Shown here piece after piece: positions 21,066-61,855 of a stretch of DNA of 64,000 nt. Position numbers and translations under genes: made by a program. This stretch comes from Candidatus Omnitrophota bacterium (GTDB lineage: Bacteria > Omnitrophota > Gorgyraeia > Aquiviventales > Aquiviventaceae): positions 2,830-66,829 of the forward strand of contig JAHFGV010000010.1 in assembly GCA_023247255.1 (NCBI GenBank), given 5' to 3'. Numbering within the stretch: position 1 is the first letter of the stretch; each line of letters begins with the position of its first letter. The notes under the pieces are model-generated. The model had not been told where the DNA came from, did not search any database, and saw only the letters and a list, made by a program, of their open reading frames with translations.

Positions 21066-21245
21066 TTACTGAGGTTTTGAAAAATGCATCGAGATGAGTG
21101 GCAGTGCTCACGTCTGTGTCATGAGTCATGTGTCAGGTGTCATGAAAAAGCAGAAAATAAACAGGCACCTCAAGTATGGCCAAAGGGCTCCTTTTGCTTT
21201 CCATGACTCATGAAACATGACACAATCCTCATTACTTCTCTTGGG
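21066..21245. repeat. Composite palindromic repeat, copy 1 (modules C-rev, B, D-rev)
   Basis: Contains AAATGCATCGAGAT...GTGCTCACGTCTG, the CATGACACA palindrome block with the central AAAAAGCAGAAAATAAACAGG...GGCCAAAG...TTTTGCTTTCCATG, and AATCCTCATTACTTCTCTTGGG. It matches the copies at 25905, 26262, 52500, 57730 and 61620. Confidence 0.7.
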
Positions 21246-21262
21246 ACAGGACACGACACTTC

Positions 21263-21511
21263 ATGTCTCTAAAGAAGCAAGGATATGGCAGTATTGCCGT
21301 TGCGAAGACGATTGGAATTTCCTTACGGCAGCTTTATTACTGGGTGGATGTTCTGCATGCGACAGCCCCCCGCACTCACCAGCATGGCCTGAGGCGATTC
21401 CGCCGCTTCAGTCCCCAGGATCTTCAACGGCTTAAGGCGATTCGAAGCCTGACGCAACAGGGCTACATGTTGCGGGCGGCCATCCGGATAGCCAAGCAGC
21501 GCTCACGGTAA
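21263..21511 (+). CDS. Short MerR-family HTH transcriptional regulator
   Basis: IAVAKTIGISLRQLYYWVDVL...RRFSPQDLQRLKAIRSLTQQGYMLRAAI matches the MerR N-terminal HTH plus the first dimerisation helix. It starts 18 nt after repeat copy 1. Confidence 0.5.
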   Translation: MSLKKQGYGSIAVAKTIGISLRQLYYWVDVLHATAPRTHQHGLRRFRRFSPQDLQRLKAIRSLTQQGYMLRAAIRIAKQRSR

Positions 21512-21691
21512 TCAGTCCTGCCGATTGACCCCGCAAAACCATCCCGTACAGTTATAGTATATGGCCCATGGCCTGTGTCGCTTCGCGGGGTTCCGCCCCC
21601 CGCGCAGGTCCGCCTCGACGGGGTATCTTTGCGGGGGTGAGCCGCACCTACGCGGGGGACCCCACACTCCCAAGCGAAGCCAAAATGGCTC

Positions 21692-21734
21692 TTGACATAT
21701 TCCGCATTAATGTTTAATGTTCTACATTAATGTA
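21692..21734 (+). promoter_or_regulatory. Candidate sigma70 promoter (TTGACA-N17-TAATGT) with two palindromic sites CATTAATG (21705-21712) and TACATTAATGTA (21723-21734)
   Basis: Read directly. Lies ~250 nt upstream of the SBBP/PKD protein gene. Preceded by a GC-rich CGCGGGG repeat block (21578-21680). Confidence 0.4.
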
Positions 21735-21986
21735 GAAGATTTAGCTTGCGGATCTATCCACAAAGCGTGAGAGACTCCCAGGTGTCAGTGATTTCGCTCC
21801 CTCGCATAACGATCCTTCCTCGTTTTTCTTCCGTATGGTTCCATCCACCGGCATTGTATCGAAATGGGACGACCCCGCCATTGCGCCACCAAGCTTTGCT
21901 TCACCCCCAAAAATCGCGGAGCGATTTCGGGAGGTTTTATCGGGATCACTCGTGTCTTTAACCGCAACACTTAAACGGGAGGGACC

Positions 21987-24900
21987 ATGCGTTATCTTGG
22001 GTGTTTATGGGGCAAACAACGAAAGGGGATTCTCTGTAGTTTCCTAGCCCTTGGCTTAGCAGCCTTGAGTCTGTCAGGCCTTAGGTTTTTTTCTCACCCA
22101 AGACTCGCGGCGTCTGTCGAGGTTTTAAATGAGGACACAGGCAAAAGCGCCCATCTGCTTAGGGCTTACGGGAGACTTCCCCTGATATTTGAAGCCAATC
22201 AAGGGCAGGCGAGTCAGGAAGTTCGATTTCTATCTCGGGGAAGCGGGTACTTGTTCTTGTTGACCTCCACAGGGGAAGCGCTCATTTTGAGCCGAATGGC
22301 AAACACGCAAGAGTCGATTCTAAACAACCCCGCCGTCGGGCCACAGCCTTCGGCCGTTGGCCCAGTTGGTTCGCTTGAACGACTGGGTGGGCAGGATGTC
22401 GCCCCACTCGAAACGGACTTGCCGGTGCCACAGGTTCATCCCGTGGGGCTCCTCCCCGCCATCGGGCCACGGCCTTCGGCTGTTGGCCCAGTTGGTTTGC
22501 TTAAGCGAACGGGTGGGCGGGATGTCGCCCCACTCGAAGCGGACTTGCCGGTGCCACAGGTTCATCCCGTGGGGCTCCACGATACAGCGAATTCTCAGGC
22601 ATTCCCGTCGGATTCACAGCGACACGCACAGCGTTCTTCCTCCAAGGTTCTGCGCATGGAGCTGATCGGCGCCAATCCCCAGCCAAAGGGGGTGGGTCTG
22701 GAGCGGCTTGCTGGGGAAACGCATTATTTCTTCGGCAACGATCCGAATCAATGGCGCACACACATCCCGACCTACACAAAAGTGCAATACACAAATGTGT
22801 ATCCGGGGGTGGATCTGGTCTACTATGGGAATCAAGGTCAACTGGAGCATGACTTCATCGTTGCCCCTGGGGTCGACCCGCATATTATCCTGCTGCGTTT
22901 TGAAGGTTCCGATTTCTTGGAAGTGGATGAGCGGGGCGATTTGGTTGTGCATTTGGCTGACGGCCAACTCCGGTTGCACAAGCCGATCATCTATCAGGAG
23001 GTCGATGGTATCCGAAAGCCCATCACCGGCGGGTATATTCTCAACGCTCAAGGCCAGGTGGGTTTTCAGATTGCCGCCTACGATGTGCATCAGGCACTCG
23101 TCATTGATCCGGTTCTCAGCTACTCCACCTATCTGGGGGGCACTGGCATTGAAGGCAATGCCGATGTTGCCCTAGATTCTTTCGGCAATGCTTACGTGGC
23201 CGGCACTACTCCATCGACGGACTTTCCCACGATGAATCCTTTCCAATCCACGAGCAACGGCAGCTTCGATCTGTTCGTGGCAAAACTCGACCCCACAGGC
23301 TCGGTGCTTGTCTATTCCACTTACCTGGGTGGAAGCGGAACCGAAACAGGAAGACTCACCGTGGATGGCTTGGGCAACGCCTACTTGATTGGGACAACGA
23401 CCTCGCTTGACTTTCCAACAGCCAGTCCCTTCCAGGCTAGTCATGGTGGCGGCCCCAGCCCTCAAGACGCGTTTGTGACTAAGCTGAACCCGACAGGCTC
23501 TGCGCTTGTCTACTCGAGCTATCTGGGAGGCCTGGGCGACGACCGTGGCATTGACATCGCCGTGGATGGCTCTGGCAACGCCTACATAGTGGGGGATACC
23601 GGTAACGCGATCTTCAATAATTTTCCAACCACAGCCGGCGCTTTTCAAACGAGCCCCCAGGGCACGGATGGTTTTGTCGCCCAGTTGGATGCTACAGGTT
23701 CCACCCTTGTCTATTCCACATTCCTTGGAGGAAGTGGATTAGAGACAGCCGCAAGCGTCGTCGTTAACAACTCCGGAAATGCCTACATAGTCGGAAGCAC
23801 GGATTCAACCGACTTTCCTGTCGTCAATGCCTTCCAATCCGCGCTTGGCGGAGGATCCGATTTGTTTGTAACGAAACTGAATACCACAGGAACGACGTTG
23901 GTCTATTCCACCTATCTGGGTGGAAATAGTGATGATGAGGCAGGGGTGGGAATCGCCATCGATTCCTCTGAGAACGCCTATGTGACCGGCTCCACGCAGT
24001 CAACCGATTTCCCTACAGCGAATCCCTTCCAGGGTGTGTTCGGAGGTGGTTTCCGAGATGCCGTGGTGACGAAGCTGAATCCCACCGGATCGGTGCTCGT
24101 CTACTCCACCTACCTCGGCGGCAGCGACGATGATATCGGTCGGTCGATCGGGGTGACTTCCGCAGGCGGCGCCTACGTTGTGGGGGATACCCAATCGACG
24201 GACTTTCCAACGATGAATCCCATTCAATCGACGCTTAGTGGTGGCTTCGATGCCTTTGTGGTCAAGTTCAACCCATCGGGATCGGTTCTCGATCATTCTA
24301 CCTATCTTGGTGGCAATGGTAGCGAGCGCGGTACCGGGATTGCCACAGACGCTTCCGGTAACCTCTACGTGGCAGGGGGCACGGTATCTACTAATTTTCC
24401 GACGAAGAATCCGGTGCAGGATATGCTCAAGGGCATTCAGGACAGTTTCGTTGCGAAGATCGATATGGTCAACGATCCGCCGGTTGCGCTATCGGATGGA
24501 CCGTTTTTGGGAGTGGAGGGCTTCCCTGTGCAGATGGACGCATCGGCTTCCTCCGATCCTGAAAACGAGCCGCTGACCTTCAATTGGGTTTTTGGAGATA
24601 GCTCGACGCTGGTGACGACGCAGGCGGCTATCGAGCACACATATCCAAATCCTGGAACCTTCACGGTCAGTCTTGTGGTCAACGATAGTCAACTCGACTC
24701 ACTCGCCTTCATTACTCAGGCATCCATCGGGTTTACGGGCGGTGGTCAGCGCAGTGACGTCAATGCCTTTTTGGCTTACATCAGCCCGGTAGCGTCGAGC
24801 ACGACCCTCTCGTCTGGCACGACGAGCTTCGACGTCACCCTCCTCTACGGAGAGACGATTGATGCGCAAACCTTCCAGGCCGTTCTCAATGGGCAGCCTG

Positions 24901-25052
24901 TCGGAGGCTTTACACCCATTGCGGGTACCAGCCAAACGGTTAGCCTTCCACTATCTGTGGGACGGAATGTGTTGCTCCTGTCGGTGGATGGAACCCGATC
25001 GGATGGGCGGATCGCTACCGATCGGGATCGATTAGTCCTCATTGTTCCCTGA
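21987..25052 (+). CDS. Large secreted beta-propeller (SBBP-type repeat) protein with C-terminal PKD domain
   Basis: Signal peptide. At least 8 repeats of the pattern YSTYLGG(S/N)G.D.G.GIA.D..GNAY(V/I)(T/V)G.T.STDFPT.NPFQ. PKD-like segment FNWVFGDSSTLVTTQAAIEHTYPNPGTFTVSLVVND. Internal 125-bp tandem duplication at 22330-22580. Confidence 0.75.
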   Translation: MRYLGCLWGKQRKGILCSFLALGLAALSLSGLRFFSHPRLAASVEVLNEDTGKSAHLLRAYGRLPLIFEANQGQASQEVRFLSRGSGYLFLLTSTGEALILSRMANTQESILNNPAVGPQPSAVGPVGSLERLGGQDVAPLETDLPVPQVHPVGLLPAIGPRPSAVGPVGLLKRTGGRDVAPLEADLPVPQVHPVGLHDTANSQAFPSDSQRHAQRSSSKVLRMELIGANPQPKGVGLERLAGETHYFFGNDPNQWRTHIPTYTKVQYTNVYPGVDLVYYGNQGQLEHDFIVAPGVDPHIILLRFEGSDFLEVDERGDLVVHLADGQLRLHKPIIYQEVDGIRKPITGGYILNAQGQVGFQIAAYDVHQALVIDPVLSYSTYLGGTGIEGNADVALDSFGNAYVAGTTPSTDFPTMNPFQSTSNGSFDLFVAKLDPTGSVLVYSTYLGGSGTETGRLTVDGLGNAYLIGTTTSLDFPTASPFQASHGGGPSPQDAFVTKLNPTGSALVYSSYLGGLGDDRGIDIAVDGSGNAYIVGDTGNAIFNNFPTTAGAFQTSPQGTDGFVAQLDATGSTLVYSTFLGGSGLETAASVVVNNSGNAYIVGSTDSTDFPVVNAFQSALGGGSDLFVTKLNTTGTTLVYSTYLGGNSDDEAGVGIAIDSSENAYVTGSTQSTDFPTANPFQGVFGGGFRDAVVTKLNPTGSVLVYSTYLGGSDDDIGRSIGVTSAGGAYVVGDTQSTDFPTMNPIQSTLSGGFDAFVVKFNPSGSVLDHSTYLGGNGSERGTGIATDASGNLYVAGGTVSTNFPTKNPVQDMLKGIQDSFVAKIDMVNDPPVALSDGPFLGVEGFPVQMDASASSDPENEPLTFNWVFGDSSTLVTTQAAIEHTYPNPGTFTVSLVVNDSQLDSLAFITQASIGFTGGGQRSDVNAFLAYISPVASSTTLSSGTTSFDVTLLYGETIDAQTFQAVLNGQPVGGFTPIAGTSQTVSLPLSVGRNVLLLSVDGTRSDGRIATDRDRLVLIVP

Positions 25053-25080
25053 GGAACGACAGAAGACGAGTATCTGTAGA

Positions 25081-25710
25081 GCCCATCCCTAAACCCTAGC
25101 GTGAGAAGCAAAGCGACCAAAGGCCGCCAGATGCAAGGAGCGACGACGAGACGTAAAGCGTGTGCGATACGGCGAACAGGACAGACGCCGCAGATGGCGG
25201 CCGTTCGCCGCAACCCGAAGGGCTGGGCCGATGGGCTGCGCCGTGCGGCGTTGCTCGTCGTCGCCATACTTCTGTTTCCAAAAGTCATATCTGCTCCTCG
25301 CCCTTGACAAGCTTGTCTCGACCTTGACACAGAATGTCAAGGTCAAGGGCGAACGCCTTGAACGGCTTGCCTATACTGATGTCGATGAGTTATAGTTGCC
25401 GCATTGGAGCTGCCAGATCTGAGCCGAGTCCAAGGCGCGACGACGCAGGCGTACTCGCGAAGCAGCAGTACGCCAAGGAGGAGCAACGCAGGAGTCGGCC
25501 AGAGATGGCAGCTCCCCCCTGATAGCGTAACGTGGGGCGGGGCGTGCTTGGCGCTAGCCTTCGTTGCTCGTCGCTTATGTACTGGTAATCCAGTACACTG
25601 TGCTCCTCGCGTCTCGGCCAGCATCCAAGCACGCTCCCGCCAATGCGGCAACTATAACTCATCGACATCAGTTTCGCCCAGCGCGGCCACGCTAGGATTT
25701 AGGGATGGGC
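25081..25710. mobile_element. MITE-like non-autonomous element (~630 bp) with 23-bp terminal inverted repeats (GCCCATCCCTAAA[C/T]CCTAGCGTG), 5-bp TGTAG target duplication and nested internal inverted repeats
   Basis: The left TIR at 25081-25103 equals the reverse complement of the right TIR at 25688-25710 with one mismatch. TGTAG flanks both ends. Inner perfect 31-bp IR at 25377-25407 and 25640-25671. Palindrome cluster with two TTGACA motifs at 25280-25345. No ORF of credible size inside. Confidence 0.6.
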
Positions 25711-25904
25711 TGTAGCTTTCTTAAGAGGATTCCTCGGCTCTGTGTGTGTTTCCTCATCGAGGAACGCACTAACAGAATGCTGAAAAACGCCAGTCGGTTC
25801 AGGGTTCTGGGCTGGGGGCCAGGACCCGTCTCACCGACGAGCGGTAGTGTATTTGTCCTGAACCCTCAACCCGGAACCACGAAGGGCTTTTCCGCAGCCT
25901 GCTG

Positions 25905-26215
25905 GGTTGGGACTGGGCTTTTGAAAAAATAGCCAACGCGTTGACCGAGTGTTGTGTCATTTCCCAAGAGAAGGAATGAGGATTGTGTCATGTTTCATGA
26001 GTCATGGAAAGCAAAAGGAGCCCTTTGGCCATACTTGAGGTGCCTGTTTATTTTCCGCTTTTTCAGGACACATAAACCATGAAACATGACACAGACGTGA
26101 GTAGTGGATATTAAAACCATGATTTACTTTCTCCCTGCTCATGGGCCACTTGGCCACTAACCTCGATGCATTTTGCAAAACCTCAGTTGGGAGGTAAATG
26201 CTTTAACCCTTTGCA
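25905..26215. repeat. Composite palindromic repeat, copy 2 (modules A, D, B, C with 45-bp insert)
   Basis: AACTGGGCTTTTG..AATAGCCAACGCGTTGACCGAGTGTTGTGTCAT, CCCAAGAGAAGGAATGAGGATTGTGTCATG, the CATGACACA palindrome block, and GACGTGAGTA...CTCGATGCATTTTGCAAAAC. Confidence 0.7.
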
Positions 26216-26224
26216 GTAGGCGGA

Positions 26225-26550
26225 TCTCCCGACCAAAATTCCGCACGCAATCTCCCACTCTACTGTTGTGTTATTTCCCAAGAGAAGTAATGAGGACTGT
26301 GTCATGTTTCATGACTCATGTGTCATGAAAGACTGTTTCATGTTTTATGTGTCATGAGTCATGGAAAGCAAAAGGAGCACTTTGGCCCTGTCTGAGATGC
26401 CTGCCTATTTTCTGCTTTTTCATGACACATAAACCATGAAACATGACACAGACGTGAGTACTGGAGCTTAGAATCATGATTTACTTTCTTCCTGGCCATG
26501 GGCCACTTGGCCACTAACCTCGATGCATTTTGCAAAACGTCAGTTAGAAT
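26225..26550. repeat. Composite palindromic repeat, copy 3 (tandem to copy 2; modules D, expanded B, C with insert)
   Basis: About 90% identical to copy 2 over ~300 bp, with an internal extra CATGTTTCATGACTCATGTGTCATG unit. Ends 180 nt upstream of htpX. Confidence 0.7.
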
Positions 26551-26728
26551 TCTGTCAATCCCACCCCTTCACCGGTTTTCCCCACGCGTGTGGGGATGGG
26601 GCGACGGTCCTCATCGAACTTTGACAGATCCTCGTGGAAGCGTCTATAATGGAGAAAGCTATCGATTGAATCCTGCCCCACGAGGTCGTGCGCACATTCC
26701 AAACACATTTCAAGAGGAGGAGAAACGG

Positions 26729-27589: not shown

Positions 27590-27700
27590 TCGGGGCCAGG
27601 GGCGAAAGACGTGGGGCAAGGCAAGATAAAGGCTAAAGAAATTTTAATCCCCTCGCCCCGTTCCCCACACCCCTGAGTCAATAGTTGGTGCCGAGCACTC

Positions 27701-30545: not shown

Positions 30546-33500
30546 ATGCCGCAGGAGGTCAGGACGGTTGGCAAGAGCTCGGTAGGTTCTGGAGGGGCTG
30601 TGATCCTGAAAGACACGCTCAGGTTGGCATCAGAAAAGGGATCGGATTCTAGTCCCCAAAAAGGATTGACCGTTCCCAGACGCTGGACGCGCTCGACCGT
30701 CCATCCTTATGATGAAGTCACCTGGGAGCTTCGAGTTGCCTCCATCACGAATGAGAAAGGCGAGGTGGTGTTTGAACAATCCGATGTCGAGGTCCCCTCA
30801 TTCTGGTCTCAGCTGGCGACTAATGTCGTGGTATCCAAATACTTTCGCGGCCAATTGGGGACCGCCCAGCGGGAGCGCAGCGTCAAGCAACTCATCGGAC
30901 GGGTGTCCCAAACGATTGCCCGGTGGGGGCTCAAGGACGGATACTTCGCCGGCTCTGAAGACGCCGAGGCTTTTGAAGATGAGCTGACCTATCTTTTATT
31001 ACACCAGTATACCGCTTTCAACTCTCCCGTGTGGTTCAACGTCGGTGTGGAAAAAGACCGTTCCCCTCAATGCAGCGCGTGCTTCATCCTCTCGGTCGAG
31101 GACCATATGGAGTCTATCCTCGAATGGTACCGCAATGAGGGGATGATTTTCAAATACGGCTCCGGGGCCGGGCTCAACGTTTCTCCCATTCGCTCGTCTC
31201 GTGAGCGCCTCGGGGGTGGGGGCATACCCTCAGGCCCTGTCTCTTTCATGCGGGCAGCCGATGCCTCAGCCGGGGTGATCAAATCCGGTGGAAAAACCAG
31301 GCGCGCGGCAAAGATGGTAGTCCTCAACGCCGATCATCCGGACATCCAGACATTCATTCTCTGCAAATGGAAGGAAGAGGAAAAGGCGCACAAGCTGATC
31401 GATCTGGGCTATGACGCTTCCATCGATGGGGAGGCCTATACCTCGGTGTTCTTCCAGAATGCCAACAATTCGGTGCGCGTCACGGATGAGCTTATGCGTC
31501 GGGCGCTGGCCGATGAGGACTGGGAGCTTAAGGCGGTGACGAGTGGCGAGATCATCGAGCGCGTGAAGGCGAAAGATCTTTTACGGCTCATTGCTGAGGC
31601 GACCTGGCACTGCGGCGATCCGGGCATGCAGTTTGACACGACCATCAACGACTGGCACACCTGCCCGAACACCGGCCGGATCAATGCCAGTAATCCGTGT
31701 TTTGCAGGGGATGCCCTTGTCTATACAAACAAGGGCTTAATTCCATTCAAAGAGCTGCATGAACGTGTCCAATTAGACGAAACCTTCCAGGTCTTCACGC
31801 ACGATGCCACTCACCCCGAGCGGCCAGCTACGACCATCAGCGCCACAAAGCCCATTCGTGTGATGTGCACGGGGACCAACGACGTCTACCAGCTTCGGTT
31901 TTCAAACGGAGTCGAAGTCAAGGCGACCACCAATCACCGCTTCTTCACGAAGAACCGCGGGATGGTCGCGGCAGAAGAGTTGCAGCCAGCAGACGAGGTG
32001 ATGTTGCTCGATCAATCCGTCGAACTCCTGTCCGCCTCGCTGGAGATTGATCTTGACGATGCGGCAATCTTCGCCAGCGGCTGGGGGGGTCGCGACACCA
32101 AAGACTACCAGTCTGTTCAACTGCCTCGGGTATGGGTGACGCCACTTGCGGAGTACCTGGGCTATCTTGTGGGTGATGGCAATGTAAGCGAGGCCAGCGA
32201 TGCGGAACATCGCCTGAGCAGCGTGTCAGTCGTGTTCGGGAAAGCTGCGGAAGCAGACGAGTTGCTGCCGCGTTTTGAGTCGCTGTTCGCTGACATGAGC
32301 GTCACGCACACGCAGACGGTCACAATGCCCAACGGTACCGTCCAATTTCGAGTCAATCGCACGCCGGTGGCGCGGTTCTTGAAACAACTGGGTGTGCAGG
32401 AGTGTGAGGCTCATGAAAAACGGGTTCCACACACAATCTTTCAGACTCCCGCGCACATCATCGCCGCGTTTCTGCGCGGACTCTTTACTGCGGATGGATG
32501 CGTGTATGAGGGTAAGACCAGTCGCTATGTCGGGCTCGCCAGTTCATCACAAGAGCTCCTTCGCCAGGTCCAACAACTCCTATTCACTTTCGGTATCCAG
32601 AGCCGAATCTACGCCACACGAGGCAGGCACGAATGCTTTCCTTATCAGAGAAAAGACGGCGAACGAGTCCTCTCTACCGGCCGCCAGTTGTATGATTTAA
32701 GGATCGCCGGTACCGCGATCGCTCGGTTCAAGGAACACGTCGGATTTCTGACGACTGAAAAACAGGCAAGACTCAATCGAGTCATCGGAGGGTACCCCTT
32801 TCGAGAGCCAAGAGATAGTACTCGCTTGGTGGCTAGGGAGCTTCTTGGCGAAGAATTGACTTATAACCTCACCGAGCCCAAGAATCACAGCTATGTTGTG
32901 AATGGGTGTATCGTTGCTAACTGTAGTGAATACATGCACTTAGATAACTCGGCGTGTAACCTCGCAAGCATCAACCTGCTGAAATTCATCGATGACGAAG
33001 GGAATTTCCTGATCGAGCCGTTCAAGCACGCCGTGCGCGTCATGACCATCGCCCAGGACATCATCGTTGATAATTCCTCGTATCCGACGGAGAAAATCAC
33101 GCGCAATGCCAAGGACTACCGGGAACTCGGCTTGGGCTACGCAAACCTGGGCGCTTTGTTGATGGCTCAAGGGCTTGCGTATGATTCTGAGGAAGGGCGT
33201 GCCTGGGCCGGGGCGATTACAGCGCTTTTGTGCGGCCATGCCTATGAGGTTTCCGGAGAGATCGCCCAGCGACTGGGGCCCTATGCCGGTTTTTCGAAAA
33301 ACCGCGAACCGCAACTGCACGTCCTACGCAAACATCGCGCTCAAGTGGATAAGATCAACCCACGCCTGGTTCCCCAGCCGCTCTTGCAGGCTGCCACGCG
33401 CGTCTGGGATGAGACGATCCGCCTGGGTGAGCAGAATGGCGTGCGCAACTCTCAGGTCACGGTACTCGCTCCTACCGGGACGATCGCGTTTCTTATGGAT

Positions 33501-34601
33501 TGTGACACGACCGGGGTTGAACCCGACATCGCTCTCGTTAAATATAAACGGCTCGTCGGTGGGGGGATGCTCAAGATCGTCAACCAAACCGTTCCACGGG
33601 CGCTTAAAAAACTGGGATACGCGCCGCAGGAAGTGGAGGCCATTGTCCGTCACATCGATGAGAAAGAAACGATTGAAGGGGCTGCGGGTCTTAAGCCGGA
33701 GCATCTGAGGAATTTTGACTGCGCTTTTCGTCCGGTGAACGGGACGCGGTCCATCCATTACATGGGGCACATTCGAATGATGGCTGCTGCCCAGCCTTTC
33801 ATCAGCGGGGCGATCTCCAAAACCGTCAACCTCCCCCAAGAAGCAACGGTTGAGGATATCTGCCAGGCCTACATCGAAGCCTGGCGTTTGGGCCTTAAGG
33901 CGATCGCTATTTACCGCGACGGCTCCAAACGCGTGCAGCCGCTCTCAACCGCTAAGACCGACAAATCGAAAGCGGCCGATTCGGCTAAAACCCCCACAGG
34001 GGTTCCTTATCGTCGCAGACTTTCCGATGAGAGACAGTCGATCACCCACAAGTTTTCCATCGGGGGTCATGAAGGTTACTTGACGGTGGGTCTGTTCGAA
34101 GACGGTACACCTGGGGAAATCTTCATCGTCATGTCGAAGGAAGGATCCACCCTTTCCGGCGTGATGGACTGTCTTGCCACGACGGTTTCATTGGCTCTTC
34201 AATATGGCGTGCCGCTTCAAGTTTTAGTCACCAAATTCAGCCATGTTCGTTTTGAGCCCTCAGGGGTGACGAATAACAGAGACATTCGATTTGCCAAATC
34301 GGTCATCGACTATATCTTCCGGTGGATGGCGCTGAAGTTTCTTCCGGAGGAACAGGCGCAACCATTCAAGGTGAGTCACGTTCCTGGTTCACAGCCTGGG
34401 AGTGGCTCTGCATCCGCTCAATCCGCACAGGCAGCTTCGCCCGCAGGAAGCAACTATCCCAACCCGATGGAGCATCAAGAACGCCTGACCTTCGTCGCTC
34501 AAGCGGACGCCCCCGTTTGTTCTGACTGCGGCTCGCTGATGGTCAGAAACGGCAACTGCTACAAGTGCCTGAATTGCGGGAGTACATCGGGATGTTCGTG
34601 A
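30546..34601 (+). CDS. nrdJ: Adenosylcobalamin-dependent (class II) ribonucleotide reductase NrdJ, interrupted in-frame by a 408-aa intein
   Basis: Class II RNR motifs, C-terminal zinc ribbon (CSDCGSLMVRNGNCYKCLNCG), extein junction NASNP|CSEY reconstituting the NPC(G/S)E active-site motif. The intein runs from codon 385 to 792. Confidence 0.85.
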   Translation: MPQEVRTVGKSSVGSGGAVILKDTLRLASEKGSDSSPQKGLTVPRRWTRSTVHPYDEVTWELRVASITNEKGEVVFEQSDVEVPSFWSQLATNVVVSKYFRGQLGTAQRERSVKQLIGRVSQTIARWGLKDGYFAGSEDAEAFEDELTYLLLHQYTAFNSPVWFNVGVEKDRSPQCSACFILSVEDHMESILEWYRNEGMIFKYGSGAGLNVSPIRSSRERLGGGGIPSGPVSFMRAADASAGVIKSGGKTRRAAKMVVLNADHPDIQTFILCKWKEEEKAHKLIDLGYDASIDGEAYTSVFFQNANNSVRVTDELMRRALADEDWELKAVTSGEIIERVKAKDLLRLIAEATWHCGDPGMQFDTTINDWHTCPNTGRINASNPCFAGDALVYTNKGLIPFKELHERVQLDETFQVFTHDATHPERPATTISATKPIRVMCTGTNDVYQLRFSNGVEVKATTNHRFFTKNRGMVAAEELQPADEVMLLDQSVELLSASLEIDLDDAAIFASGWGGRDTKDYQSVQLPRVWVTPLAEYLGYLVGDGNVSEASDAEHRLSSVSVVFGKAAEADELLPRFESLFADMSVTHTQTVTMPNGTVQFRVNRTPVARFLKQLGVQECEAHEKRVPHTIFQTPAHIIAAFLRGLFTADGCVYEGKTSRYVGLASSSQELLRQVQQLLFTFGIQSRIYATRGRHECFPYQRKDGERVLSTGRQLYDLRIAGTAIARFKEHVGFLTTEKQARLNRVIGGYPFREPRDSTRLVARELLGEELTYNLTEPKNHSYVVNGCIVANCSEYMHLDNSACNLASINLLKFIDDEGNFLIEPFKHAVRVMTIAQDIIVDNSSYPTEKITRNAKDYRELGLGYANLGALLMAQGLAYDSEEGRAWAGAITALLCGHAYEVSGEIAQRLGPYAGFSKNREPQLHVLRKHRAQVDKINPRLVPQPLLQAATRVWDETIRLGEQNGVRNSQVTVLAPTGTIAFLMDCDTTGVEPDIALVKYKRLVGGGMLKIVNQTVPRALKKLGYAPQEVEAIVRHIDEKETIEGAAGLKPEHLRNFDCAFRPVNGTRSIHYMGHIRMMAAAQPFISGAISKTVNLPQEATVEDICQAYIEAWRLGLKAIAIYRDGSKRVQPLSTAKTDKSKAADSAKTPTGVPYRRRLSDERQSITHKFSIGGHEGYLTVGLFEDGTPGEIFIVMSKEGSTLSGVMDCLATTVSLALQYGVPLQVLVTKFSHVRFEPSGVTNNRDIRFAKSVIDYIFRWMALKFLPEEQAQPFKVSHVPGSQPGSGSASAQSAQAASPAGSNYPNPMEHQERLTFVAQADAPVCSDCGSLMVRNGNCYKCLNCGSTSGCS
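31698..32921 (+). other. Intein (Hint domain with LAGLIDADG homing-endonuclease core) inserted at the catalytic Cys of NrdJ
   Basis: N-terminal splice junction CFAGDALVYT (Cys1). Two LAGLIDADG-like motifs, LGYLVGDGNV and AAFLRGLFTADGCV. C-terminal junction ...VVNGCIVAN|CSEY. Confidence 0.75.
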
Positions 34602-49590: not shown

Positions 49591-49648
49591 GCGGGTTGGA
49601 ATCGAGCGCACAGGATGATAGCGGGTAGGCGTATGGGGGAGGTCGGGC

Positions 49649-52499: not shown

Positions 52500-52608
52500 G
52501 CGGTCGGACCTTGCATGGCCAAAGGGTTCCTTTTGCTTTCCATGACTCATGACACATGAAACATGACACAACACTCGGTCGACGCGTTGGCTATTTTTGA
52601 AAAAGCCC
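52500..52608. repeat. Composite palindromic repeat, copy 4 (half of module B + module A-rev), immediately upstream of trxB
   Basis: GGCCAAAGGGTTCCTTTTGCTTTCCATGACTCATGACACATGAAACATGACACAACACTCGGTCGACGCGTTGGCTATTTTTGAAAAAGCCCAGTT. Confidence 0.65.
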
Positions 52609-53577
52609 AGTTGTAAGGAGGATGTTTCTATGTCAGAACAGGTAGTCATCATCGGTTCCGGTCCGGCTGGGCACACAGCGGCGATTTATACCGCTCGAGC
52701 GAACTTGCAACCGGTTCTATTTGAAGGATTCAGCGTTGGCGGGATTCCAGGGGGACAGCTCATGACGACAACGGATGTGGAAAATTACCCTGGTTTTCCT
52801 CAAGGTGTCCAAGGGCCCGTTTTGATGGAGGCTTTCCGAGCACAATCCGTTCGGTTTGGCACACGCCTCTTGAACGAAGACGTTACTCATGTCGAGCTTG
52901 CCAGCCGTCCTTTTCAGGTCGCTTCGGCACAGCATCAACTGAAAACCAACAGCCTCATCATTGCAACCGGAGCCACTGCCAAGCGACTGGAACTTCCCAG
53001 TGAAAATCGACTCTGGAATAGAGGAATCTCCGCTTGTGCCGTGTGTGATGGAGCGCTTCCCATCTTTCGAGGCAAGGAGTTAGTTGTGGTGGGAGGGGGA
53101 GACTCTGCCGCTGAAGAATCGACCTACCTGACCAAGTTTGCTGCGAAGGTTTATCTCATCCACCGTCGGGATCAATTGCGTGCGTCCCGGATTATGCAAC
53201 AGCGGGTGCTTCATAATCCTAAGATTGGCGTTCTGTGGAATACCGTTGTGGAAGACGTGGTGGGGGAGGAGCTCGTGCGTGGTGTGCGTTTGCGTGATGT
53301 GAAGACGAATCAAATCCGGGAACTTCCTTGCGGAGGGCTTTTCTACGCCATTGGATTCACCCCGAATACCGCTTTGTTCAAAGGACAACTGGAGCTGGAT
53401 GCGGCCGGCTACCTTGTGACACAGCCGGGTTCCACCCACACTTCTGTACCTGGCGTTTTTGCCTGCGGGGATGTCCAGGACAAGCGCTATCGACAGGCTA
53501 TCACTGCGGCAGGAAGCGGTTGTATGGCTGCGATGGACTGCGAGCGCTGGCTCACCGAGCAGGATCGTGTAGTGTAG
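52597..53577 (+). CDS. trxB: Thioredoxin-disulfide reductase TrxB
   Basis: FAD motif [10 protein letters not shown]. Redox-active CAVCDG. NADPH motif [11 protein letters not shown]. An alternative start at the internal MSEQ (52630) is likely. Confidence 0.85.
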
Positions 53578-53671
53578 ATTGGAAATCACGTAATTTTTTG
53601 GTATCGACTTTGTTGAATAGGAAAACGCATCGCAGCTTGACGCAACCAGGGATCCTGTGACGTAAGGGACT

Positions 53672-54741: not shown

Positions 54742-54883
54742 CCAGGTTTTTCTTTTGGAAATGGGTAACACGAGATAAGAATAAGTAACACGATCCATCC
54801 CCATCGTGCTACGAGGGTCTCGAACCTTGACCCGAGCGTGAAAAAGAAGATTGCGGTAGAACCCACATGGAGACAGCGGATAC

Positions 54884-55594: not shown

Positions 55595-55923
55595 AAACCC
55601 CCATGAAGTTCTGGGTTTGCCTGGGGATACTGATCCTTCTGACTCCGCTCGGTTTGTTAGCCAAAGGCACGGCGTGGGGTGAGTGGGCCTCTGAAGAATT
55701 GGCGGCTCAGATCGGCTTCATTCCGGATGGCCTCAAGCGCCTTGAAACATTCTGGGAGGCTACGTTTCCTGGCTATACCGTTTTTGGATGGGGAGAGTCC
55801 TGGCAAGTCAGCGTTGGCTACATCCTCTCAGCGCTCGTGGGGGTGGGGGTGATAGTTTTGCTGACCCTGGCGCTTGGGAAGTGCCTCCTCTCGCGGAAGC
55901 GAAAATCTCACCATGAACCCTGA
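55591..55923 (+). CDS. Small membrane component of the Ni/Co ECF transporter (CbiN/NikL-like)
   Basis: ATGA overlap with the cbiM stop. Two TM segments flank a periplasmic segment (GTAWGEWASEEL...IPDG). Confidence 0.5.
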   Translation: MKTPMKFWVCLGILILLTPLGLLAKGTAWGEWASEELAAQIGFIPDGLKRLETFWEATFPGYTVFGWGESWQVSVGYILSALVGVGVIVLLTLALGKCLLSRKRKSHHEP

Positions 55924-56845
55924 TTGGCTTGTGACATCGTCAGACGCGTGGGCATCCTGTCCATGCTGCCAGGTGAGGACCGGCAGGTCGAATTTCATCT
56001 GCCGCACGCTTGAAGGGTTCAGCGCGTTCTGCCAGGAAACGTTTCGGGCCAAGGATACAGCAATGGCACCGGGCCTCCTCCAAGCCATCGATCCGCGGGT
56101 GAAGCTCCTCACGTTTCTCGGATGGCTCCTATTCACGACCTGGGTTCACAGGTTTGATATCCTTGTGGGTCTCTATAGCTTCACCCTCGCGCTCGCCATG
56201 TTCTCTAGGATTCCACTGACGCGATTCATTCTACGGACCTGGCTGTTTATACCCCTATTCACCGGAATTATGGTCCTTCCGACGCTGTGTAACTTTGTCA
56301 CGCCTGGCGAGCCCATCTGGATGCTCGCACAGTTCGCGCACCCGGTCAGGATCGGTCCTTGGGTTCTTCCTGACGTTATCGCAGTGACTCGGCAGGGGCT
56401 CATGGTTGCCAGCGGTCTTGTGATGCGTGTCGCCACGGCGGTGTCGTGGGTGACCCTCCTCACCTTGACCACCCCAGGGGACCGTTTGCTCCATACGCTC
56501 CAGGTGCTGCGCGTGCCGCAGACGTTTCTCATGGTGCTCGGTCTTATGCACCGGTATCTGCATCGGCTCGTTCGGGAGGCAGAGGAGCTTCACCTGGCCA
56601 TGCAAAGCCGGATCATGTGCACTCCAATGGTCAGGACCGGACAACGGCTCGTCGCCACCCGCGTGGGGGTGCTGCTTCGCAAGTCGTTAGGTCTCTCTCA
56701 AGAAGTGTACCAAGCCATGTGCGCCCGCGGGTATACCGGTGAAGTGCGGCTGCTCCATACCCCCTCCGTTACAGGGACGGATTACGCCTGGCTCGTTGGG
56801 AGCTTCATCCTGCTCGGAGCTGTCATGTGGTTGAGTCAACGATAG
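55913..56845 (+). CDS. cbiQ: ECF transporter transmembrane (T) component CbiQ
   Basis: Conserved start region IDPRVKLLTFLGWLLF (canonical start possibly at ATG 56062) and C-terminal R-x-G-x-x-x-M-x-x-RG-like motif (MQSRIMCT...ARGY). Confidence 0.65.
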   Translation: MNPDWLVTSSDAWASCPCCQVRTGRSNFICRTLEGFSAFCQETFRAKDTAMAPGLLQAIDPRVKLLTFLGWLLFTTWVHRFDILVGLYSFTLALAMFSRIPLTRFILRTWLFIPLFTGIMVLPTLCNFVTPGEPIWMLAQFAHPVRIGPWVLPDVIAVTRQGLMVASGLVMRVATAVSWVTLLTLTTPGDRLLHTLQVLRVPQTFLMVLGLMHRYLHRLVREAEELHLAMQSRIMCTPMVRTGQRLVATRVGVLLRKSLGLSQEVYQAMCARGYTGEVRLLHTPSVTGTDYAWLVGSFILLGAVMWLSQR

Positions 56846-56855
56846 AGATCCCAGT

Positions 56856-57707
56856 ATGGAGCCTAGCATCTTTGAATTCACGCACGTCAGTTTTGCGTAT
56901 CAAGGAATCCATCCCGCTCTCTCGGATGTGTCGCTTGAGATTCGATCCCGACAGCGACTCGCCTGCCTCGGGGCCAATGGCTCGGGGAAGTCCACTCTCC
57001 TCAAGCTCCTGGGAGGATTGCTCGTTGCCCAGCAGGGGGAGGTCCGGTTCTTGGGCCAGCCGCTCGCCGATGCAACGCTGCGCGATCCTGAGTTCAACCG
57101 CTTCTTTCGGACCAAAGTCGGCTTGGTGTTCCAGAATTCCCACGCGCAGCTTTTCTCCTCCACGGTCTGGGAGGAGATTGCGTTTGGGCCGCTCCAGCTC
57201 GGCCTGCCAAAGGCTACAGTGGAGCAGCGGGTTCAGGACCTCTTGCGTCTGTTGCGGATCGAACGGCTGCGCGATCGCTCTCCAGAGCAACTGAGTGGTG
57301 GGGAACAGAAGCGGCTCGCCATTGCCGCGGTGTTGGCGAGCAACCCGGACATCCTTCTGATGGATGAACCGACGGCCACGCTCGATCCCAGAAGCCGGTG
57401 GGAATTGGTCGATCTCGTGGTAGAGCTCCAGGCCATGGGCAAAACGGTCGTCACGGCCACCAACGACCTGGAGATTGTGCCACTGATCGCCGAAGAGCTC
57501 TACATCCTGGATGAGCGCAAGACGATTCTCGCGGCCGGAGCGACGCCAGTTCTCCTCGGCAATGAGGCGGTGCTCGAGCAGGCCAACCTGATCCACATCC
57601 ACACCCACACCCATCGGCAGACGCAGCACCGGCATTCCCATCAGCATCCGGCGATATTGCCTGAGCACCATCCTGGATCCAGCAGCGCACAGGACAGAAA
57701 ACCGTAA
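56856..57707 (+). CDS. cbiO: ECF transporter ATPase CbiO with His-rich C-terminal tail
   Basis: Walker A LGANGSGKST, signature LSGGEQKRLAIA, Walker B LLMDEP. Tail HIHTHTHRQTQHRHSHQHPAILPEHHPG. Confidence 0.85.
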   Translation: MEPSIFEFTHVSFAYQGIHPALSDVSLEIRSRQRLACLGANGSGKSTLLKLLGGLLVAQQGEVRFLGQPLADATLRDPEFNRFFRTKVGLVFQNSHAQLFSSTVWEEIAFGPLQLGLPKATVEQRVQDLLRLLRIERLRDRSPEQLSGGEQKRLAIAAVLASNPDILLMDEPTATLDPRSRWELVDLVVELQAMGKTVVTATNDLEIVPLIAEELYILDERKTILAAGATPVLLGNEAVLEQANLIHIHTHTHRQTQHRHSHQHPAILPEHHPGSSSAQDRKP

Positions 57708-57729
57708 TATTTTTTTGGAATAGGGTGTT

Positions 57730-57985
57730 ACTGATTTAATAACTGAGCTTTTGCAAAATGCATCGAGATTAGTGGCAGTGCTCACGTCTGTTTCATGAGT
57801 CATGTGTTATGTGTCATGAAAAAGCAGAAAATAAACAGGCATATCAGGCATGGCCAAAGTGCTCTTTTTGCTTTCCATGAGTCATGACACATGAAACATG
57901 ACACAGACGTGAGTAGTGGATCTTAGGAACATGACACAACACTCGGTCAACGCGTTGGCTATTTTTGCAAAAGCCCAGTTATGAT
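57730..57985. repeat. Composite palindromic repeat, copy 5 (modules C-rev, B, partial C, A-rev)
   Basis: GCAAAATGCATCGAGATTAGTGGCAGTGCTCACGTCTG, then the CATGACACA palindrome block, then ...CAACACTCGGTCAACGCGTTGGCTATTTTTGCAAAAGCCCAGTT. Confidence 0.7.
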
Positions 57986-58222
57986 TAAGGAGCTCGCCGC
58001 GCTTGTCGGCGTGAGTCAGGCGATGATCGACTGGGAACTTGGGAACTCAGGAACGTGAAGCCAACAGGGAAAGGAATCAAGGGATTGAAAGAGGTGTTGA
58101 ATCTCGGCGCTCCATAGGATTTACTTGTTGCATTGCGAATCGGACGTCTCCCATTCCCGTTCCCGTTGACTTGTCAGGCTTGACGAATCAAGCGTCGCCT
58201 TGTAAGATGGCCTTAAGTAGCT

Positions 58223-58654
58223 ATGGCTAAACATCGAAGCGTAAGACGGCTCAAAGCAGTTTCTGCGCGGACGGCAATTGTCGTTAGCTTTGCCTTTTTG
58301 ACGGCTACCAACTATTGCAGCCTGGAAGCATTCGCAGAGCAGGTTGAAAGTTCCCACCATCACGAAGAGGCTGCGCCTCATTCCCACGATGAAGGGTCCT
58401 CGATACCAGGCCATGACCAAGACTCCTGTTGCGCGACTCTTCAGGTAATTGTTACTCCAACCATACGCCTTCATCTCGTTCATCCCAGCACAGTGGCGTT
58501 GCCGTTCTTGGCTCTGTCTACCTCGAGGACAACGACAGTCACTGACGTCGCTCATGTTGCCAGCGGCCTAAGTCCTCCCGCACGAGAACCGACGACCCTA
58601 CCGTTCTACCGCACGACGTTTGCCAGCCACGCTCCGCCGATTCGTCTCGCCTAG
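58223..58654 (+). CDS. Hypothetical secreted protein with His-rich segment (SSHHHEEAAPHSHDEG)
   Basis: Signal peptide. TTGACG-N17-TAAGAT promoter 30 nt upstream. Confidence 0.4.
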   Translation: MAKHRSVRRLKAVSARTAIVVSFAFLTATNYCSLEAFAEQVESSHHHEEAAPHSHDEGSSIPGHDQDSCCATLQVIVTPTIRLHLVHPSTVALPFLALSTSRTTTVTDVAHVASGLSPPAREPTTLPFYRTTFASHAPPIRLA

Positions 58655-58759
58655 ACTGACGCTCTAGCTCGTCGAGCGTCACGTTGCGTAGTCCCTCGTT
58701 TTACCTAACGAAGTGTCATTTTGCTCAAAGTCTATCGTGGATGAGTAGGCCGGATCGCT

Positions 58760-60217
58760 ATGCTGGATAAGACCTCTTTTATTATTCCTGCCATTTTCAG
58801 CACGAGCTTGATCGCTGGCTGTGCATCCGTGCCCTCCAAAGGAGGATTCGCGGATGTACAGCGGATGATTGGACAGCGCACAGGGCTGAGCGTGCACTGG
58901 GACCAGGGCAAACCTGAGGACCGTGCCGTGAAAGACCATCTTCAATCTCTCTTACAGCAGCCCTTGACAGCCGAGGTTGCTGTCCAGATCGCGCTGCTCA
59001 ACAATCGTGCGTTACAGGCGATCTATGAAGAACTCGGGATCTCCCAGGCTGATTGGGTGCAAGCCGGCCTGCTGCAGAACCCTGTCTTTCTCGGAAGCTG
59101 GCGGACCTCAAGCCATACCTCCGTGCTCAATAGTGAATACGCCCTTGCGCAGAACTTCTTTGACATTTTTTTCCTGCCGCTGCGAAAGAAACTGGCCGCT
59201 GCACAGTTTGAGCAAGCCAAGCTGCGTGTGAGCGATGCGGTTTTTGGATTCAGCGTGCAGGTGCGCTCGACCTACTACACTCTACAAGGAGCCGAGCAAG
59301 TCCATGCCATGCGGCAGACGGTGATGCAGGCGGCAGAGGCAGCCAGAGAGCTGGCGGAACGTCAACATGAGGCGGGCAACATCAACGACCTTGAACTGGC
59401 AACTCAGCAGGGCGCGTTCCAACAGGCGAGGCTAGAGCTGGCTCAGAGCGAGGTTACGATGCAGCTTGCGCGGGAACGATTCCACCAGCTGCTGGGGTTT
59501 GCAGAGGCGCCGATTACCTGGCGCGTGGTGGAGCAGTTGCCAGCCCTGCCATCGGTCGATCCCGCTATAGACGACCTGGAAGCACTCGCCCTGTCACAGC
59601 GGCTCGACCTAGCCGCTGCTCGGAAGAGTTTGGACATCCTCGCACGAGCAAGAACCATCACTCGGTTCGGGATCGTGCCAGCGGTCAACGTCGGGGTTGA
59701 TACTGAACACGACCTTGATCACGCCTGGGTGACCGGGCCCACTGTGGATGTGGAAGTCCCCATTTTCGATCAACGGCAAGTCGCCAGAGTTCGCGCCAAC
59801 GCGCAACTGCGCCAAGCTCAGCAGCAGCTATCCGCCTTGGAGGCTGAGATTCGCTCTGCGGTGCGTGTAGACATCACGCGGCTAAAAGCAGCTCGTCAGA
59901 CCGTGGAGTTGTATCAGCAGGATCTCATCCCCGTGCGTGAGCGCATCGTGACGGAGACCCAAAAACACGTCAACTACATGTTGTTGGGCGTCTTCCAACT
60001 TCTGCAAGCCAAGCGGGAGGAAGTGAATGCCTACCGGGAGTACCTCGAAGCCTTGCGGGATTACTGGATTGCGTTCGCAGAGTTAGAGCGTGCCGTGGGC
60101 GGAAAGCTTCAGATCCCTGAAGTGAGCGCGACCCCGGTTTCTTCATCCGTTCCGTCAGATGAAAAGAAGAACTCTGAGACGTCCCATCAGCACCATCACG
60201 GAGGTGATGCGCCATGA
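58760..60217 (+). CDS. TolC-family outer-membrane efflux lipoprotein (NodT/CusC-like)
   Basis: Lipobox LIAGC. Two OEP repeats with coiled-coil segments. 485 aa. Confidence 0.75.
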   Translation: MLDKTSFIIPAIFSTSLIAGCASVPSKGGFADVQRMIGQRTGLSVHWDQGKPEDRAVKDHLQSLLQQPLTAEVAVQIALLNNRALQAIYEELGISQADWVQAGLLQNPVFLGSWRTSSHTSVLNSEYALAQNFFDIFFLPLRKKLAAAQFEQAKLRVSDAVFGFSVQVRSTYYTLQGAEQVHAMRQTVMQAAEAARELAERQHEAGNINDLELATQQGAFQQARLELAQSEVTMQLARERFHQLLGFAEAPITWRVVEQLPALPSVDPAIDDLEALALSQRLDLAAARKSLDILARARTITRFGIVPAVNVGVDTEHDLDHAWVTGPTVDVEVPIFDQRQVARVRANAQLRQAQQQLSALEAEIRSAVRVDITRLKAARQTVELYQQDLIPVRERIVTETQKHVNYMLLGVFQLLQAKREEVNAYREYLEALRDYWIAFAELERAVGGKLQIPEVSATPVSSSVPSDEKKNSETSHQHHHGGDAP

Positions 60218-61617
60218 AGCGCGTTGGGGTATTGGGACTCATTGTGGCAGCGATAGCTGCAGGGCTGCTCTTGCTCCAAAGGGCTGCGCACAGCCAAGTG
60301 TCATCTGACCCACTCAATCCCAGAGACCTTCCTTACACGCCGGTTGTCACCCCCAACGGCTCCACCTTACCATGGAAGCTGGTCGATGGCGTCAAAGAGT
60401 TTCACCTGGTAGTGGAGGAGATCGAGTGGGAAATCGCGCCGGGCATGATCATCAAAGCCTGGGGTTACAATGGCCGAACGCCCGGCCCCACGATTGAGGC
60501 GGTGGAGGGCGATCGGGTGCGGATTTACGTGACGAACAAGCTCCCCGAGATGACCGCCGTCCACTGGCACGGGATCCTCTTGCCCAGCGGGATGGATGGA
60601 GTCGCCGGCTTAACCCAGCCAGGTATTCTCCCGGGAGAAACGTTCGCCTACGAGTTCACCCTGCGCCAGCACGGCACCCAGATGTACCACTCCCACGGCG
60701 ATGAGATGACGCAGATGGGGATGGGGTCGATGGGCTTCTTCATCATCCACCCCAAGAAGCAGGAACGTTACATTGACCGGGATTACGCCATTTTCCTAAA
60801 CGAATGGTTCGTGGAACCCGGCACCGCGACGCCCAACGTCAACATCATGACCGACTTCAACATCTTTACCTTCAACAGCCGCGCCTTCCCGGGGACTGCC
60901 CCCTTGGTGGCCAGGACCGGGGACCGGGTGCGCATTCGCATCGGCAACGTCGGCCAGGAGTCCCATCCGATCCATCTCCATGGCCACTCGTTCAAGATCG
61001 TTGCCACGGACGGTGGGGACATCCCCGAGTCAGCGCAGTGGCCAGAGACCACGGTGACGGTTTTTCCTGGCCAGACGCGGGACATCGAGTTCATCGCTAA
61101 CCCCGGCGACTGGGCGCTGCATTGTCATCGACGGCACCATCCGATGAACGCCATGGGTCATGAGATTCCTAATGTGTTAGGGGTCAGTCAAGCTGGCGTG
61201 GAAGGTAAGATCCAAGCACTCTTACCAGGATACATGGCCATGGGGGAGAACGGCATGGCGGAGCACGCAGAGCATGCCCAGCACATGCAGGGGCCATCCA
61301 ATACGCTGCCGATGATGGGTGGCGAAGGACCGTTTGGCAACGTCGGGATGGGCGGTATGTTTACGATTCTCAAGGTTCGGGATAATCTAAAAGAAGGTGA
61401 AGATCCTGGATGGTACCCCAACCCACCTGGAACGGTAGCCGCTCGGGTTTATGGTCCTGCCAAGTCCAAAGCAATCGGGTCGGTCACGTACGTCTGTCCC
61501 ATGCATCCCGATGTCCGTCAGGCACAACCGGGCTCATGCTCTAAATGTGGAATGACTTTGAAGCCACAGAAGGAAGATGCGGTAGAAGATGAGGTGGCAA
61601 TCAGCGATCTACGCTAG
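60214..61617 (+). CDS. Multicopper oxidase (CopA/CueO-like) with Met-rich segment and C-terminal YHCPMHP-type heavy-metal-binding motif
   Basis: Copper ligands HWHG, HSHG, HLHGH, HCHRRHH. Met-rich GGEGPFGNVGMGGMF. C-terminus YVCPMHPDVRQAQPGSCSKCGM. ATGA overlap with the TolC-like gene. Confidence 0.8.
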   Translation: MKRVGVLGLIVAAIAAGLLLLQRAAHSQVSSDPLNPRDLPYTPVVTPNGSTLPWKLVDGVKEFHLVVEEIEWEIAPGMIIKAWGYNGRTPGPTIEAVEGDRVRIYVTNKLPEMTAVHWHGILLPSGMDGVAGLTQPGILPGETFAYEFTLRQHGTQMYHSHGDEMTQMGMGSMGFFIIHPKKQERYIDRDYAIFLNEWFVEPGTATPNVNIMTDFNIFTFNSRAFPGTAPLVARTGDRVRIRIGNVGQESHPIHLHGHSFKIVATDGGDIPESAQWPETTVTVFPGQTRDIEFIANPGDWALHCHRRHHPMNAMGHEIPNVLGVSQAGVEGKIQALLPGYMAMGENGMAEHAEHAQHMQGPSNTLPMMGGEGPFGNVGMGGMFTILKVRDNLKEGEDPGWYPNPPGTVAARVYGPAKSKAIGSVTYVCPMHPDVRQAQPGSCSKCGMTLKPQKEDAVEDEVAISDLR

Positions 61618-61619
61618 AA

Positions 61620-61855
61620 CTGGGCTTTTGCAAAAATAGCCAACGCGTTGACCGAGTGTTGTGTCATGTGTCATGAAAAAGCAGAAAATAAACAGGTATC
61701 TCAAGCATAGCCAAAGTACGCCTTTTGCTTTCCATGACTCATGACACATAAAACATGAAACAGTCTTTCATGACATATAACACATGACTCATGAAACAGA
61801 CGTGAGTACTACCACTAATCTCGATGCATTTTGCAAGACCTCAGCTAGAAGATAC
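61620..61855. repeat. Composite palindromic repeat, copy 6 (modules A, B, C)
   Basis: AACTGGGCTTTTGCAAAAATAGCCAACGCGTTGACCGAGTGTTGTGTCATG, then the CATGACACA palindrome block, then GACGTGAGTACTACCACTAATCTCGATGCATTTTGCAAGACCTCAGCTAGAA. Confidence 0.7.

Follow-up and report, generated by a model that had tools for sequence, protein, structure and literature searches.

What are the long palindromic repeats that recur in a stretch of DNA from Candidatus Omnitrophota bacterium, and how did they come to lie where they do? The stretch, here called the window, comprises 64,000 nt of contig JAHFGV010000010.1 (GCA_023247255.1). [quoted passage not shown] We regard the repeats as very probably a family of small, non-autonomous MITEs of the DDE type, which an IS4-related transposase, similar to IS701 or IS1634, probably mobilizes in trans. 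Such elements are an ordinary kind of mobile DNA; the family itself had not been seen before, and its bacterium is uncultured and of groundwater type. In the following paragraphs we discuss the copies, their ends, their insertion sites and the other explanations that have to be weighed.

All six copies described at the outset were recovered in their places by a repeat finder, in agreement with blastn-short, and they occupy five loci; a sensitive blastn search of all six against the window gave no seventh. A 28-nt core pattern matched 6 of the 6 copies, with 0 matches expected by chance. The limits of the copies are as follows.

c1, 21069-21258, minus strand, truncated on the A side
c2, 25913-26186, plus strand, complete
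c3, 26264-26543, plus strand, truncated on the A side
c4, 52513-52610, minus strand, half element
c5, 57743-57978, minus strand, complete
c6, 61620-61844, plus strand, complete

The complete copies in the window (c2, c5 and c6) measure 225-274 bp, and the tandem arrangement of c2 and c3 that had been pointed out is confirmed. Identity over common stretches, originally put at 85-95%, is mostly 82-96%, and falls to only 72-79% in the longest alignments against c7, a flipped copy on a second contig that is described below. The G+C content of the copies is 40-47%, against 54.7% for the window. The longest open frame within a copy spans 58 amino acids, and no transposase is encoded.

The copies are not assembly artefacts, a concern that the original prediction had itself raised: c1 to c3 are present in place in two independent ENA assemblies (L001 and L002), which are 99.8-99.98% identical to the window. 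Short-read Logan contigs end within c4 and c5, as is expected of multi-copy sequence, and the repeat family explains the breakpoints of short-read assemblies in this lineage.

The key to the anatomy of the element is a 16-nt terminal inverted repeat, CTGRGSTTTTGMAAAA, with which both module A and module C open. It has 10 matches in the window, where 0.3 are expected, every one of them at the end of a copy, and it stands at both ends of c2, c5, c6 and c7. Because A and C carry this sequence in inverted orientation, they are two different subterminal ends of one transposon. Module B is the internal palindrome, in which inverted arrays of the heptamer TGTGTCA, each of 2.3 to 9.3 units, flank an asymmetric core of 59 nt that is not itself palindromic. 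Module D (23 nt) is an optional indel sited between two TGTGTCAT repeats, and a 51-nt block of the C end is likewise optional, being found only in some copies. The repeats are modular, as had been proposed, but the four modules are not of equal standing: two are transposon ends, and D and part of C are dispensable.

The individual copies can be read in these terms. In c1 the C end (inverted repeat 21069-21084) is followed by a heptamer arm, the core (21144-21202), the second arm and D, after which the copy breaks off inside module A, 4 nt upstream of the ATG of a MerR-like gene. The complete copy c2, with inverted repeats at 25913-25928 and 26171-26186, runs from the A end through D, an arm, the core (26006-26064) and an arm to a long C end. 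Its neighbour c3 has a cut A side, D, an expanded arm of 9.3 heptamers that includes a 36-nt duplication, the core (26363-26421), an arm, and a long C end with its inverted repeat at 26528-26543. Only 29 nt of core, one arm and the A end (inverted repeat 52595-52610) make up c4, and the trxB ATG (52630) lies 19 nt beyond its end. In c5 the order is C end, arm, core (57818-57876), arm, a partial second inner-C block and A end; two nt after it, at 57981-58058, lies an open reading frame (ORF) of 25 codons that has the appearance of a truncated helix-turn-helix gene. Finally, c6 consists of the A end, a short arm, a flipped core (61675-61733), an expanded arm and the C end.

Judged from the C end, c1 to c5 agree in the direction of the core, which is reversed in c6 and c7; c6 and c2 accordingly have cores inverted with respect to each other. 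The limits of the flipped segment are the outermost inverted TGTGTCATG units. Such a flip-flop core, together with variable heptamer arrays, makes a neat case of palindromic MITE diversification, and it leaves the current understanding of MITEs unchanged. In single-strand folding c5 gave a near full-length hairpin of -52.5 kcal/mol (z = -7.1 against shuffled controls); c6 (z = -4.0) and c2 (z = -3.0) also exceeded their shuffled controls, which bears out the long hairpins that had been anticipated. A small conserved ORF in the core (MAKGLLLLSMTHET) was considered and rejected, its ATG being lost in c6.

The family extends beyond the window, which bears on the other doubt raised at the outset, namely that there might be no copies elsewhere. 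A comparison of the translated repeat with a protein collection returned a single called ORF (P0121), which led to copies c7 and c8 on a 72-kb contig (L139) found in the same two ENA assemblies as L001 and L002. The genes on this contig are of the housekeeping kind (clpC, mcsB, mcsA, lysS, lnt, secA and prfB). The complete copy c7 lies upstream of mcsA; c8, upstream of lnt, lacks the core, and its arms have collapsed to TGTGTCATGACACA. This amounts to 8 copies in about 84 kb of DNA from this organism, a density that, if typical, would extrapolate to hundreds of copies per genome. The repeat family is absent from all of the relatives examined (L009, L089, L141 to L144 and L148), and the core pattern had 0 matches in 185,579 representative genomes and in JGI metagenome contigs.

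With the element ends set as CTG...CAG, the flanking 6-mers at the four copies with two ends were as follows.

c2, TTGGGA at 25907-25912 and TTGGGA at 26187-26192, 6 of 6 positions identical
c6, CTAGAA at 61614-61619 and CTAGAA at 61845-61850, 6 of 6 positions identical
c7, TTCTGA and TTCTAA, 5 of 6 positions identical
c5, TAATAA and TTATGA, 4 of 6 positions identical

Against random pairs of window 6-mers taken 230 nt apart, the combined probability of these matches is 2.6e-8. The flanking 6-mers are AT-rich and of the form TTNNRA; since they are direct repeats and not inverted ones, they are target-site duplications rather than extensions of the terminal repeats.

The history of one insertion can be read from c6. 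Its left-hand CTAGAA contains the present stop codon (TAG) of a multicopper oxidase gene, and the sequence beyond its right-hand end is the remainder of that gene.

61845-61898, plus strand, orphaned 3' end of the oxidase gene, reading LEDTMESSEHHGGIHHH and then stop

The relatives' oxidases terminate in ...QDTMEMPEHHEGMPHH and ...GTQEFHEGMHHH. Because the orphan tail LEDTMESSEHHGGIHHH can be aligned to the C-termini conserved in P0002 to P0006, c6 must have inserted 54 nt upstream of the ancestral stop, cutting off the last 17 codons, which encode a His-rich tail; the insertion explains why this conserved tail is missing from the present multicopper oxidase. The site is free of c6 in two relatives whose oxidases are 88% (L089) and 86% (L148) identical, where the gene order OEP, oxidase, small gene is conserved and the distance from stop to next start is 28-31 nt. 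The difference between the empty and the occupied state is one between species only, not within a population. Of the copies described at first as intergenic, c6 is not so in origin, its site being within the ancestral oxidase gene, at the 3' end.

Set beside the defining features of MITEs, which we take from PMC10969869, the family shows a length below 500 bp, no transposase gene, terminal inverted repeats, direct duplications (of 6 bp), dispersed copies and an empty site in relatives. With the AT-richness and the hairpins, this substantiates the "MITE-like" character that the original prediction had entertained.

As to the transposase, the same ends are found in other bacteria. The end pattern had 49 single matches in metagenome contigs, about the number expected by chance, of which five are informative; nhmmer found extended similarity to the family copies in none of the 49, and the 3 matches in viral contigs are at chance level. 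Assembly Ga0156289 (about 49% G+C) supplies four of the five, all copies of a GC-rich MITE family that is otherwise unrelated to the present one but has the first 19 nt of the C end in common with it, and whose duplications are of 6-7 bp (TTCTTA, TGGTAA, TTATTA(A) and TTCTTA(A)). In L116 a 1,220-bp cassette (175-1391) with the same ends and a perfect duplication (TAATAT) contains a response-regulator gene only. It adjoins an insertion sequence of the IS701 family (1392-2714), from which only TAATAT separates it. The 404-amino-acid transposase of the latter scores 178.5 bits with NF033540 (cut-off 150), and the ends of this insertion sequence agree with CTGRGSTTTTGMAAAA at 13 of 16 and 11 of 16 positions. 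A plasmid search with this transposase gave relatives of at most 32% identity only, which confirmed the family name and offered no closer insertion sequence.

It is because the same ends and duplication length recur in the Ga0156289 MITEs and the L116 cassette that we read the family as MITEs of the DDE type. According to a survey of IS4-related elements from 2008, the duplications of the IS701, ISH3 and IS1634 families measure about 5 bp, and IS1634 has ends of the form C-----YT with AT-rich duplications of 5-6 bp (PMC2266710). The end of the present family, which begins with C and has TT at positions 7-8, fits the IS1634 form, a three-position signature that is weak evidence. To judge from these resemblances, the partner is most likely an IS4-related DDE transposase of the IS701 or IS1634 type. 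The end motif so defined, CTGRGSTTTTGCAAAA, goes with a 6-bp duplication. No fewer than three passengers, unrelated and from different bacteria, have this motif in common, an indication of a clade of IS701/IS1634-like transposases, the substrates of which could now be listed.

We envisage the following course of events. A DDE transposase, its gene lying elsewhere in the genome, would bind both ends of the element, cut the target with a 6-bp stagger and insert the element, and repair of the gaps would yield the duplication. The number of heptamers would then vary by slippage, short direct repeats (TGTGTCAT) would promote deletion, and some copies would be truncated after insertion. Recombination between the inverted arms may be the means by which the arm-core-arm segment flips.

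Several observations tell against a family of mobile MITEs of this kind. Half of the copies (c1, c3, c4 and c8) are truncated and have a single end each. The duplication listed for IS701 is 4 bp (PMC2266710), against 6 bp here. The DNA reached from this organism, about 87 kb, yielded no transposase gene whose ends match. Of the two transposase genes in the window, the one other than the Y1 gene treated below was tried as a partner:

9742-10599, minus strand, IS1595-family transposase gene (NF033547, 230 bits)

It was rejected, as neither clear terminal inverted repeats nor a match to the end motif were found around it. When c6 is excised on paper, the oxidase remains out of frame for want of one base at the left junction; we infer that a change of a single base went with the insertion or came after it. 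The assignment of L139 to the same genome rests solely on shared samples, similar G+C content and repeat identity of 85-95%. Lastly, no polymorphism of insertion or of orientation was seen at any locus among the near-identical assemblies.

The region ahead of htpX differs from that of the relatives. Four relatives have an RNaseH/WYL gene, an MBL-fold gene and htpX adjacent to one another, with 66-131 nt ahead of htpX, and lack the segment that separates the latter two in the window, where 6.0 kb lie between the MBL-fold gene and the htpX promoter.

21259-26263, plus strand, lineage-specific segment between the inverted copies c1 and c3
26621-26650, plus strand, native htpX promoter (TTGACA, 18 nt, TATAAT)

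The segment holds the MerR-like gene (21263-21511), an SBBP/PKD gene (21987-25052; 1,021 amino acids), 850 nt of non-coding DNA, and c2. Its flanking copies c1 and c3 are inverted, with C ends outward, in the manner of a composite transposon with truncated inner ends, and the outer flanks (TTATTA and TTAGAA) match at 4 of 6 positions. It is possible that c1...c3 moved as one unit; c2, given its perfect duplication, looks like a later insertion. The repeat family explains the presence, in this lineage only, of a 6-kb MerR-like and SBBP/PKD segment between the MBL-fold gene and htpX. The htpX promoter itself lies outside and downstream of c3 and is not element DNA; it keeps the form seen in the relatives (TTGACAG, inverted repeat, TATAAT).

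Some further features of this region may be recorded. The inverted repeat in the spacer of the htpX promoter is CTCCTCGTGGAGG-like and conserved in L141, L143 and L144; it could be a candidate operator of a heat-shock repressor. Between c3 and this promoter, at 26572-26605, is a lone G+C-rich palindrome, GTTTTCCCCACGCGTGTGGGGATGGGGCGAC, which by eye resembles a repeat of the clustered regularly interspaced short palindromic (CRISPR) type. The SBBP/PKD gene contains a 126-nt tandem duplication (22328-22578, 92% identity); one unit is present in L001 (979 amino acids) and two in the window and L002 (1,021 amino acids), a copy-number polymorphism between strains. The 850 nt at 25052-25900 have no convincing gene and no Rfam match, and include several GC-rich palindromes as well as a 43-nt inverted repeat pair (25365-25407 and 25640-25682; 91% complementary).

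An alternative that gives the elements a function is that they are now regulatory: a protein bound to the TGTGTCA arrays might co-control stress and metal genes, or the flip-flop core might serve as an orientation switch. We consider this improbable. Stress or metal genes are found downstream of seven of the eight copies, namely the merR-like gene, htpX-clpB (two copies), trxB, the OEP-oxidase operon, the gene past the oxidase, and mcsA-mcsB-clpC; the core is found in both orientations between inverted arms, and c1 and c4 approach the merR-like and trxB start codons to within 4 and 19 nt. Against this, copies lie anywhere from 4 to over 500 nt away from the next start codon, the orientation of the copies with respect to the gene varies, and so does the number of heptamers, some copies being truncated and c8 having no core at all. 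The conserved native promoter of htpX is intact outside c3, and no orientation difference between assemblies was observed at any locus. The sample, moreover, is one of eight copies, six of which come from one region rich in such genes. The association with stress and metal genes that had been remarked on originally is correct as a description, and is weakened by c8, which lies upstream of lnt, and by c6, which lies within a coding region.

The roles as terminators or mRNA stabilisers suggested originally find no support either: a scan found neither a sigma-70-like promoter nor an intrinsic-terminator consensus within any of them, and Rfam gave no match, even at E values up to 1 for the c1-c3 region. 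The idea that module A or C holds a promoter for sigma-54 or sigma-70 was set aside, the spacing being a misfit by eye and the scan having found none. No conserved match to the heat-shock operators HAIR, CtsR box or CIRCE was seen by eye in the core or arms. That some copies have been co-opted as regulatory DNA, as an operator array or invertible switch carried by the transposon, is likewise improbable; if true, the spread of the family would have put htpX-clpB, mcsAB-clpC, trxB, the merR-like gene and the copper oxidase operon under shared control. Insertions tolerated in long AT-rich upstream regions explain the association with these genes more simply.

The comparison with REP and BIME sequences raises a second alternative, that the copies are units of this kind, or miniature elements of the IS200/IS605 type, moved as single-stranded hairpins by a Y1 protein. 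The gene and its surroundings are as follows.

17933-18865, Y1 (REP-associated tyrosine transposase-like) gene, NCBIfam REP_Tyr_transpos 82.5 bits (cut-off 80)
17872-17900 and 18841-18869, inverted repeat of the Y1 gene, GGGGTCAGGCATT..., 86% complementary

This gene, which just attains its threshold, lies 2.2 kb from c1, and the copies do form long hairpins; even so, we hold the idea to be very unlikely. Y1 transposition, whether by IS200/IS605 elements or by REP-associated tyrosine transposases (RAYTs), makes neither terminal inverted repeats nor target duplications. The copies bear both, and at 190-280 bp they are far from the 20-40 nt of REP units, so the supposed resemblance to REP/BIME is not supported. 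The suggestion that the Y1 protein encoded at 17933 mobilizes the family fares no better: on either side of the gene stands a 29-nt inverted repeat of its own, which is unrelated to the family and occurs nowhere else in the window, and no family copy flanks the gene. The Y1 protein carries a C-terminal helix-turn-helix domain of the DnaA type, and no homologue of its gene was found in any locus fetched from the relatives.

That a single intergenic sequence was multiplied by local segmental duplication and gene conversion, with no transposition, is scarcely credible, since set against the tandem c2/c3 pair and the module D shared by c1, c2 and c3 within 5.5 kb are copies that stop exactly at the inverted repeat, each with a different 6-bp duplication, further copies on a second contig, unrelated elements in other organisms bounded by the same ends, and an empty site in the relatives that fits simple insertion; local duplication may still account for the c2/c3 pair.

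Returning to the family as MITEs, several known systems invite comparison. Like the Correia elements of Neisseria and QMITE2 of Coxiella, the copies are shorter than 500 bp, with terminal inverted repeats, duplications and no transposase, and like prokaryotic MITEs in general they are rich in A+T, form hairpins, lie mostly between genes and come as length variants (PMC10969869). Unlike the known MITEs, to which there is no sequence match, they have an interior in which inverted tandem arrays of a heptamer enclose a core that can point either way. They also differ in the duplication, which is 6 bp here, whereas Correia elements duplicate TA and QMITE2 7-9 bp. The BOX elements of Streptococcus pneumoniae (boxA-boxB-boxC) are modular and intergenic with variable internal units, as is the present family; we know of no clear terminal inverted repeats or target duplications in them, and the modules described here, unlike those of BOX, resolve into two transposon ends and an internal palindrome. 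BOX elements are also mentioned in PMC10969869.

With IS1634 of the IS4-related group the family shares ends that start with C and have YT at positions 7-8, and the AT-rich duplications of 5-6 bp (PMC2266710). In bracketing 5 kb that four relatives lack, c1 and c3 are like MITE-flanked composite units such as the Acinetobacter integrons that have identical MITEs on both sides (PMC10969869); unlike proven MITE-flanked units, c1...c3 has flanks that agree at only 4 of 6 positions and truncated inner ends. The response-regulator gene of L116, lying between the same ends, recalls the mobile insertion cassettes (MIC231). With REP/BIME and their RAYTs there is a likeness in that the sequences are repeated, palindromic and mostly extragenic, with a RAYT-like gene nearby; the family copies differ in being ten times longer, in having terminal inverted repeats and duplications, and in not flanking that gene.

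A few other features of the locus deserve mention. Upstream of the OEP-oxidase operon in the relative L089, positions 5655-7570 encode a phage-type integrase and two HTH_17 genes, and the region upstream of this operon may be an old integrative island. In the window, a class II ribonucleotide reductase of 1,351 amino acids (30546-34601) contains an intein with a LAGLIDADG domain; the orthologues in the relatives, of 920-950 amino acids, are without it. A c-di-GMP-I-GGC riboswitch is predicted at 17437-17529 on the minus strand (60 bits; gathering score 59). Just downstream of it on the same strand is an ORF of 641 amino acids (15509-17434), most of which is made up of about 28 tandem repeats of 39 nt (13 amino acids), rich in Asp and Gly.

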